From the NCBI RefSeq assembly GCF_003018255.1, contig NZ_CP027441.1: a DNA stretch of 64,000 nucleotides; one strand, given 5' to 3'. The position numbers were made by a program. This DNA is from Escherichia coli. GTDB lineage: Bacteria; Pseudomonadota; Gammaproteobacteria; Enterobacterales; Enterobacteriaceae. Each line of letters starts with the position of its first letter. Position 1 is the first letter of the stretch. Positions 42,001 to 45,000 of this stretch are shown piece after piece.

Positions 42001-45000
42001 TTTACTCACTTAGCCGCGTGTCCACTATTGCTGGGTAAGATCACAACGCTGGAAACGGAATGACCGTGGTCAACAATTTGTTTTACCACTTCAATTTTGA
42101 ACGCTTCGGGATAAGGCTTACCGCTTATGGGCACCTCTCTTTAATTAACCTTAAATGAGTCTGAGGTGTCTGTTAAACACGTGGCGATTCACGGTTCTAA
42201 AAGCTCAGCAACCAATAATAACAAAAAAAATAACAAACCTTTCTAATGAAAACATCATAAAAACCTCACATCTTCTGCAAATACCATTAACGAAACTAAT
42301 ATAACCAATAGAAATGATTTTAATATATCTGCCTATTAGTTTAGTATTGTCCTCTCATTTAAACCAAATAACAGGAAGAATTCTTTATGCTCAAAAGAAA
42401 TTGTGTGCATTCGATATTAGCTCTTACCTTCATGGCAACGAGTACTCATGCAGCCCCCCATAATGGAGTGACTTATGAAAGCCTTGAAAAAGGGAAGTTT
42501 AGTGATTTAAGTAGTTTTTTGAAAACGATCAATCTTTATGATAAAGATAATAATTTAATTGATAATGGGAAGCAACTTGACATAAGTAAAGCTGAAAACA
42601 AATATCTTTTTTACACATTAAAGACAAACAAACAAGCAGGTCTCTCTCCTGAAGGTTTTGGCACGACATTGAGTTCAATCGCAACTTATTATGATTATGC
42701 AAAAGAACAAGCTTACTTTGTAGATAAAGAGTCTAAAAAAATCCTATTATCATCCGATGGTTTAGGGAATGTAATGGTCATTGGACCTGATGGATATGGT
42801 TATACAAAACATATACCTGAAATTAGTGAATACTTGTACAAGCTCAAGATAAATGGACCTCTTGGAAATGCTGTTGACATGGAACTATCCGGAGAGGATA
42901 TCAAAGCAATTTACTCGGAGATGTCATATCTTGGTAGCGGTAAAACGGAGGCAGGGGGAAGAGCATCTGCTACAGGAGTTGATTCGACCTCATTAGGATA
43001 TAATAGTATCGCTAATCACTCTAATAGCATAGCCCTTGGCGCGAACTCAGTCACAACACGCTCAAATGAAGTCAGTATAGGCACAAAAAATGGAGAAACT
43101 CGCATAATTGGTGGTGTTTCTGATGGGAAATTAACAACAGATGCTGCTACAGTTGGCCAACTGTATCACGAATATTCGATTGAAAAAGTAGCACGTATTG
43201 AAGGTGATGCACAAACATTAAAATCAGCAAACACTTATACAAATAAGCAAGTGAATGCGCTGGAGCAAAATACCAATCAACAACTTCAACATGAAGCAAC
43301 TGCCCGTATCGAAGGTGATGCACAAACACTAAAATCAGCAAACACTTATACAAATAAGCAAGTGAATGCGCTGGAGCAAAATACCAATCAACAACTTCAA
43401 CATGAAGCAACTGCCCGTATCGAAGGTGATGCACAAACACTAAAATCAGCAAACACTTATACAAATAAGCAAGTGAATGCGCTGGAGCAAAATACCAATC
43501 AACAACTTCAACATGAAGCAACTGCCCGTATCGAAGGTGATGCACAAACACTAAAATCAGCAAACACTTATACAAATAAGCAAGTGAATGCGCTGGAGCA
43601 AAATACCAATCAACAGTTTCGTCAATTACGAGATCAGATAAATAAAAATAGAAAACGTTCAGATGCCGGCATTGCAGGTGCAATGGCCATGACAGCAATA
43701 CCAATGATTGATGGTAAACAGTATTCTTTCGGCATGGCTGCAAGTAATTATCGTGATGAACAGGCTATTGCCGCTGGTATAATTTTTCGCACCAGCGAAA
43801 ACACCGTCGTCAGACTAAACACCTCATGGGATACACAACATGGAACAGGCGTTGCCACAGGCATGTCCATTGGATGGTAAAATATGAACGACAACAAAAT
43901 GGTAAATATTTAGTTCCTAATGAAATGGTACAACAATCTTCACCATACCAAAAGGGTATCATATCACAGGATGATTATCCTGTGCTAATAATTGCTAACG
44001 TAATGTTAAACTTTATTGTAATGCACATTGTAAAATAATCATCCACTAAACAACTTCTATATTCCAACTACAGCATATTACGACTTCCATAACAGGAAGT
44101 CGTTTTTTACCAGCATTAGGCGTCAACAAATTGCTTACGGAATGCATGGGCGTTGTTGCACCCCTCCGAGGACTCAGTCTGTATGAAGGCGCACTTCAGC
44201 AGACTTCCCCTGAACGTGAGCCGGATATATCCACCGGGATTGCACGTCTCAAACGCCAGCAGGCAAAATGGGATGAAGAGCTGGCCATCCTCTAAAAGGC
44301 CGCGACATACTTCGCGAAGCGCCTGAAATGAAGTATGTCTTTATTGAAAAACATCAGGCTGAGTTCAGCATCAAAGCAATGTGCCGCGTGCTCCGGGTGG
44401 CCCGCAGCGGCTGGTATACGTGATGTCAGCGGCGGACAAGGATAAGCACGCGTCAGCAGTTCCGCCAACACTGCGACAGCGTTGTCCTCGCGGCTTTTAC
44501 CCGGTCAAAACAGCGTTACGGTGCCCCACGCCTGACGGATGAACTGCGTGCTCAGGGTTACCCCTTTAACGTAAAAACCGTGGCGGCAAGCCTGCGCCGT
44601 CAGGGACTGAGGGCAAAGGCCTCCCGGAAGTTCAGCCCGGTCAGCTACCGCGCACACGGCCTGCCTGTGTCAGAAAATCTGTTGGAGCAGGATTTTTACG
44701 CCAGTGGCCCGCACCAGAAGTGGGCAGGAGACATCACGTACTTACGTACAGATGAAGGCTGGCTGTATCTGGCAGTGGTCACGTGCCGTTATTGGCTGGT
44801 CAATGTCGCCACGCATGACGGCGCAACTGGCCTGCGATGCCCTGCAGATGGCGCTGTGGCGGCGTAAGAGGCCCCGGAACGTTATCGTTCACACGGACCG
44901 TGGAGGCCAGTACTGTTCAGCAGATTATCAGGCGCAACTGAAGCGGCATAATCTGCGTGGAAGTATGAGCGCAAAAGGTTGCTGCTACGATAATGCCTGC

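Follow-up and report, generated by a model that had tools for sequence, protein, structure and literature searches.

The repeat array of saa, a plasmid-borne adhesin gene of Escherichia coli, as a hotspot of size variation

The strongest tandem repeat in the window, by which we mean the whole 64-kb stretch of E. coli DNA analysed here, lies in the part of the adhesin gene saa that encodes the predicted stalk. Judged by the alleles available for comparison, it is a true size-variation hotspot: a single identical non-repeat haplotype of the gene carries anything from two to seven repeat units, and near-identical plasmids differ by whole units. We consider it very likely, with a probability of about 90%, that the array is the known stalk-region VNTR of this plasmid-borne adhesin and that it is altered by out-of-register pairing of whole units. 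Polymorphism in saa repeat number is already known, and secondary citations credit Paton 2001 and Lucchesi 2006 with describing how the gene varies in size with its count of 3' direct repeats. The observation made in the initial annotation, that the array is a likely site of size variation, is real, and its interpretation is correct. The survey described below gives an up-to-date distribution of unit numbers from complete genomes (two to seven units, most commonly three), and it shows that long saa alleles are mislabelled by automatic annotation.

Identity and domain organization of Saa

The saa coding sequence, taken from the ORF listing, runs from 42387 to 43880 on the plus strand and encodes the STEC autoagglutinating adhesin, a trimeric autotransporter of 497 aa (plus stop). 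Its product is 100% identical to the RefSeq protein 'autoagglutinating adhesin Saa' (WP_077173497.1), and at the DNA level all 1,494 nt agree with four E. coli plasmid records annotated saa (100% identity). Autoagglutination and an adherence phenotype are ascribed to Saa in the literature cited in PMC4060028.

The N-terminal ~185 residues have no Pfam match. A YadA_head repeat is found at 42969-43049 (+; aa 195-221; Pfam PF05658, 31.6 bits against a cut-off of 25), and this region aligns to the head regions of EibD, SadA and BpaC. The neck and the start of the stalk lie at 43113-43166 (+; aa 243-260, ...GGVSDGKLTTDAATVGQL...), where PF05662 YadA_stalk scores 15.5 bits, below its cut-off of 28.4, and where the neck of Saa aligns to the EibD neck in 2xqh. 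The C-terminus carries a YadA-like membrane anchor at 43713-43877 (+; aa 443-497; Pfam PF03895, 36.6 bits against a cut-off of 22.7), which aligns to the anchors of Hia, YadA and AtaA (structures including 3emo, 2gr7 and 2lme). NCBIfam returned sub-threshold matches only, to the YadA, BimA and Ata trimeric autotransporter models. Its head, neck and anchor modules place Saa among the YadA-type trimeric autotransporter adhesins (type Vc).

Layout of the repeat array

Tandem Repeats Finder places the array at 43194-43615, with a period of 111, 3.8 copies, 99% matches, no indels and a score of 830, which is by far the highest in the 64-kb window (runner-up 129). Its start at 43191 is in codon phase 0 of the ORF at 42387-43880, and each 111-bp unit reads as 37 codons (ARIEGDAQTLKSANTYTNKQVNALEQNTNQQLQHEAT). 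The absence of indels, the period of 111 and the codon phase bear out the earlier description of a 111-bp in-frame tandem array. The array spans aa 269-410, in the predicted stalk between neck and anchor.

Unit 1 (type 'a'; 43191-43301, +; aa 269-305) shows three synonymous differences from the interior units 2 and 3. These two, both of type 'b' and located at 43302-43412 (+) and 43413-43523 (+), are identical to each other. The terminal partial unit (type 'c'; 43524-43615, +) equals 'b' over 92 nt, has its first mismatch at unit index 92 and then continues into unique sequence. Copies 2 to 4 had been described as identical, which holds inside 43191-43611, where copy 2 equals copy 3 and copy 4 follows them over its 92 nt, although copy 4 is truncated (31 of 37 codons). 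The perfect period-111 self-match extends from 43219 to 43615, and a perfect periodic tract of 397 nt cannot have arisen by chance. Since 111 is 3 x 37, the reading frame is kept when a whole unit is gained or lost.

An antisense ORF (43147-43743, minus strand, 198 aa) runs through the saa array, and its translation is itself repetitive. We rejected it as a gene; it is most likely a by-product of a repeated unit that has no stop in that frame.

Repeat number in complete genomes

We found saa in 57 of 5,426 complete E. coli genomes and in 51 PLSDB plasmids. The copy-number survey was kept to complete genomes; short-read assemblies cannot resolve identical 111-bp units. Units were counted from match spans, and the ten longest alleles were counted from fetched loci. 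Alleles of three units (gene length 1383 nt) occur in 30 genomes, those of four units (1494 nt) in 15 and those of five units (1605 nt) in seven, while two units (1272 nt) and six units (1716 nt) were found in two genomes each and seven units (1827 nt) in one. An invariant repeat number across isolates, named in the initial annotation as the outcome that would speak against a hotspot, is not what was found, as the 57 complete genomes range from two to seven units.

All 25 alleles that were translated are intact ORFs, of 423, 460, 497, 534, 571 or 608 aa for two to seven units, in agreement with the expectation that repeat number would change without shifting the frame. We also considered an on/off, phase-variable contingency locus and rejected it: the unit is 37 codons long, all 25 alleles are intact ORFs, and what varies instead is length.

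In the same 25 fetched alleles every unit was typed by exact sequence. In the main clade the alleles can be ordered by length as a|c, ab|c, abb|c (the allele in the window), abbb|c (that of pO113), abbbb|c and abbbbb|c. Here the edge units are fixed and variation lies only in the number of identical interior 'b' units, which is the pattern expected of out-of-register pairing between interior units. Across the 25 alleles, unit types differ mostly by synonymous changes, and four types carry one amino-acid change each.

The saa match of 2014C-3338 (NZ_CP027453.1, 55720-57101) spans 1,382 nt and not 1,383, and no PLSDB protein is listed for it; the shortfall could be due to a sequencing error or to a 1-nt frameshift by which a 3-unit allele was inactivated. 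Among the longer alleles, the 6-unit saa of OkiPb01698 (NZ_AP042586; 3001-4716 of the fetched locus) is an intact 571-aa ORF that RefSeq presents as two pseudogene fragments, and a second 6-unit allele and the 7-unit allele are named just 'YadA C-terminal domain-containing protein'. Automatic naming of saa appears to fail above five units.

Published typing of the array

PCR across the array in several isolates, which had been proposed as a check, is already published as a typing method and gives several size variants (PMC4060028, PMC8388633). The scheme in PMC8388633 uses the primers VSAAF and VSAAR, numbers six variants from 0 to 5 by amplicon size, and detected four variants among 16 saa-positive isolates; variants 1-5 are reported in PMC3769853. 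Both primer sites match the window exactly, VSAAF (sequence from PMC8388633) at 43098-43116 (+) and VSAAR at 43689-43708 (-), for an in-silico amplicon of 611 bp. Across the fetched alleles, in-silico PCR gave products of 389, 500, 611, 722, 833 and 944 bp. The 4-unit allele of RM14516 (NZ_CP043938) has no exact VSAAR site, so amplicon typing might fail or weaken in that lineage.

Length differences of this kind could in principle be artefacts of assembly or annotation, produced by the collapse or expansion of identical repeats, with no real polymorphism behind them. Identical 111-bp units are indeed prone to misassembly, occasional copy-number errors are possible in public assemblies because long identical repeats are hard to assemble, and PGAP annotation of the long alleles is inconsistent. 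We nevertheless find this explanation barely credible. All of the records are complete-genome assemblies, the lengths differ by exact multiples of 111 nt, and every translated ORF is intact. In addition, published PCR amplicon-size typing independently gives several size variants on the same ladder, and in-silico PCR with the published primers yields a clean ladder from 389 to 944 bp.

Repeat number changes on identical backgrounds

The backbone comparison covered the 1,068 nt of non-repeat saa coding sequence in 26 sequences (the window and the 25 alleles), and the flanks were compared by BLAST. Non-repeat saa is identical in 13 of the 26 sequences, and these 13 carry 2, 3, 4, 5, 6 and 7 units. 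Three other zero-difference saa haplotypes carry {3,6}, {3,4,5} and {2,3} units. At least nine copy-number changes have occurred on zero-SNP saa backgrounds. Longer stretches of plasmid behave in the same way. Two plasmids from Okinawan bovine faeces, those of OkiPb01682 (5 units) and OkiPb01698 (6 units), share a 7.2-kb locus that is identical apart from one unit, and pJNE151685-1 (4 units) and pJNE141411-1 (7 units) are set apart over 41 kb by ~3 substitutions, by two small gaps and, in the array, by 333 bp. Whole-unit differences on identical backgrounds imply that repeat number changes much faster than point substitution.

These comparisons bear directly on the opposite reading, in which repeat number is stable and the lengths are old, lineage-specific alleles that were inherited vertically or moved between plasmids, with no hotspot at all. 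Such a reading could draw on the dominance of the 3-unit allele (30 of 57 genomes) and on the single length seen within some related plasmid groups, for example O104:H21, or UC4224, UC4315 and UC4316. It is highly improbable, however, given that all six lengths occur on one zero-SNP saa haplotype and two to three lengths on each of three others, that near-identical 7-kb and 41-kb loci differ by one and three units, and that several lengths are present in both the 99-100% clade and the 97% clade. As far as sequence comparison can tell, copy-number change in saa is shown by these alleles to be recurrent and fast relative to substitution, and the array deserves the name of hotspot that it had been given.

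Exchange among units has also left a trace in the 97%-identity clade, where clade-specific substitutions are common to all of its units (types j, k, n and o). Their presence in every unit is a case of concerted evolution and implies that units continue to exchange sequence. One practical consequence is that saa length, which changes on near-identical plasmid backbones, is fast and homoplasic and is unfit as a lineage marker.

Whole-unit misalignment as the likely mechanism

Identical interior units and 397 nt of perfect period-111 homology would let sister or plasmid copies, or a nascent strand and its template, pair out of register by whole units. A shift of one or two units would leave 286 or 175 nt of perfect homology, which is ample for RecA-mediated unequal exchange and for RecA-independent slippage alike. 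RecA-independent replication slippage is well documented for ~100-bp tandem repeats in E. coli. Resolution by either of these processes would add or remove interior units, every product would be in frame, and the resulting alleles would be distinguished by stalk length and nothing else.

The initial annotation had ascribed changes in repeat number to unequal recombination. The whole-unit changes that this would produce are seen, but by sequence they are not separable from the products of replication slippage; we infer a molecular route by recombination or slippage, two processes that the sequences do not tell apart.

Plasmid context of saa

The window contains ccdAB, traT, repB, ehxCABD, sab, lactate-utilisation genes, espP, saa, iha, subAB and cdiA. 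The plasmid is a pO113-type STEC megaplasmid, and the assignment of saa to the pO113-type plasmid of LEE-negative STEC (LEE, locus of enterocyte effacement) was made from plasmid genes. Over 41.5 kb the window shows a 99.96% match to the plasmid of strain 2015C-3905 (NZ_CP027372), and saa is plasmid-borne in all 287 matching places in the 57 genomes.

Two inverted remnants, annotated as IS3-family, bracket saa and lie outside the array itself. The upstream arm is at 40829-41814 (-) and the downstream arm at 44196-45181 (+); each is 986 nt long and 98% complementary to the other. Three of the 25 fetched plasmids (05-3629, 2013C-4282 and 94-3024 pO104_H21) carry the saa segment in the opposite orientation with respect to iha and the ECs1377-family gene, as expected of recombination between the IS3-family arms. 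In the 97%-identity saa clade (four fetched loci), epeA, which encodes a serine protease autotransporter, lies upstream of the IS3 remnant and replaces the espP-side genes that are present in the window, so the saa-iha module occurs in at least two plasmid contexts. The saa gene of RM14516 (NZ_CP043938), from a blackbird, is flanked by IS66 and IS200 and not by the usual upstream IS3 arm.

Predicted stalk structure and a possible role of length

Each unit encodes 37 residues, predicted to be alpha-helical, in the segment that links head and neck to the C-terminal beta-barrel anchor. If this segment is helical, a unit would add 37 x 0.15 nm, or ~5.5 nm, to the stalk. In a single-sequence AlphaFold2 monomer model of low confidence (mean pLDDT 39.6, pTM 0.21), aa 256-432 form almost one continuous helix and the C-terminus forms beta strands, which lends weak support to a helical, coiled-coil nature for the 37-residue unit. 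In the array, hydrophobic periodicity is strongest at 3.69-3.70 residues, that is, 37/10; for a single unit the 37/10 periodicity is not significant, as 1,692 of 20,000 shuffles reach it (~0.085). A period of 3.7 residues fits ten turns per unit in a coiled coil that is near-straight or right-handed, which would account for the tolerance of whole-unit changes, and we offer it as a lead.

A more specific proposal would be that the unit makes exactly ten turns, at 3.70 residues each, in a trimeric coiled coil that is near-straight or slightly right-handed, and that repeat number is selected to match the depth of the O-antigen or capsule and is not the result of neutral drift. We hold this to be decidedly unlikely. 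If it were true, whole-unit changes would keep both the register of the core and the rotational setting of the head, reach would shift by ~5.5 nm per unit, and two to seven units would give a range of reach of about 27 nm.

Selection on stalk length may also be framed more generally, with the array acting as a length contingency locus whose variation is adaptive because it places the head beyond the O-antigen or capsule, suits the host species or allows escape from antibodies. Stalk length in trimeric autotransporters matters for YadA function, whole-unit changes are the only ones seen in saa, and the protein sequence of the unit is almost invariant. This near-invariance, with mostly synonymous differences between units, suggests purifying selection on a functional stalk module. 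We think it unlikely all the same that the variation is adaptive. Toma 2008, as cited in PMC4060028, found saa variants without a correlation to adherence, which argues against a simple effect; subA carriage has no association with saa variant (PMC3769853); and, compared by eye across the 57 genomes, unit number has no obvious link to human, bovine or food source.

Other repeats in the window

Two further tandem repeats were observed. A 9-bp repeat at 8426-8493 (TTGGGAGAA x 7.6, 96% matches) sits in a small hypothetical minus-strand CDS (WP_011310117.1, about 8365-8613) and, being in frame (9 = 3 x 3), could be another length-variable site. A 21-bp repeat is present in 2.5 copies at 4653-4704, ~250 bp upstream of a RepB-family replication initiator gene (about 4947-5924), and these repeats are probably the iterons of the replicon.

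Comparison with known systems

In-frame length polymorphism is also found in other bacterial surface proteins, such as the group B Streptococcus alpha C protein and the stalk repeats of UspA/Hia-type adhesins. As in saa, the repeated DNA units are identical and in frame, they belong to a surface-exposed fibre or stalk, the protein sizes form a ladder, and misaligned pairing is the presumed origin. A functional consequence has been documented for some of these systems, whereas the study cited for Saa reports no correlation with adherence.

Like YadA and EibD-type adhesins, Saa has a YadA_head repeat, a neck motif and a C-terminal YadA_anchor, together with a predicted helical stalk, and among solved relatives EibD is the nearest to it in sequence (2xqh, E = 2.2e-11, over head and neck). 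Unlike theirs, its stalk consists of near-perfect tandem copies of a 37-aa module, in numbers that differ from strain to strain, and the solved relatives align to this module no further than its first unit.

The closest comparison is with the saa of pO113 itself, from the O113:H21 strain 98NK2 (NC_007365), which is the same gene with the same units, on the same type of plasmid and with the same neighbouring genes. The two are 100% identical over nt 1-1229, and the non-repeat parts differ at 2 nt in 1,068. The window allele has four units (abb|c), encodes 497 aa and gives a 611-bp amplicon, whereas the pO113 allele has five units (abbb|c), encodes 534 aa and gives one of 722 bp.
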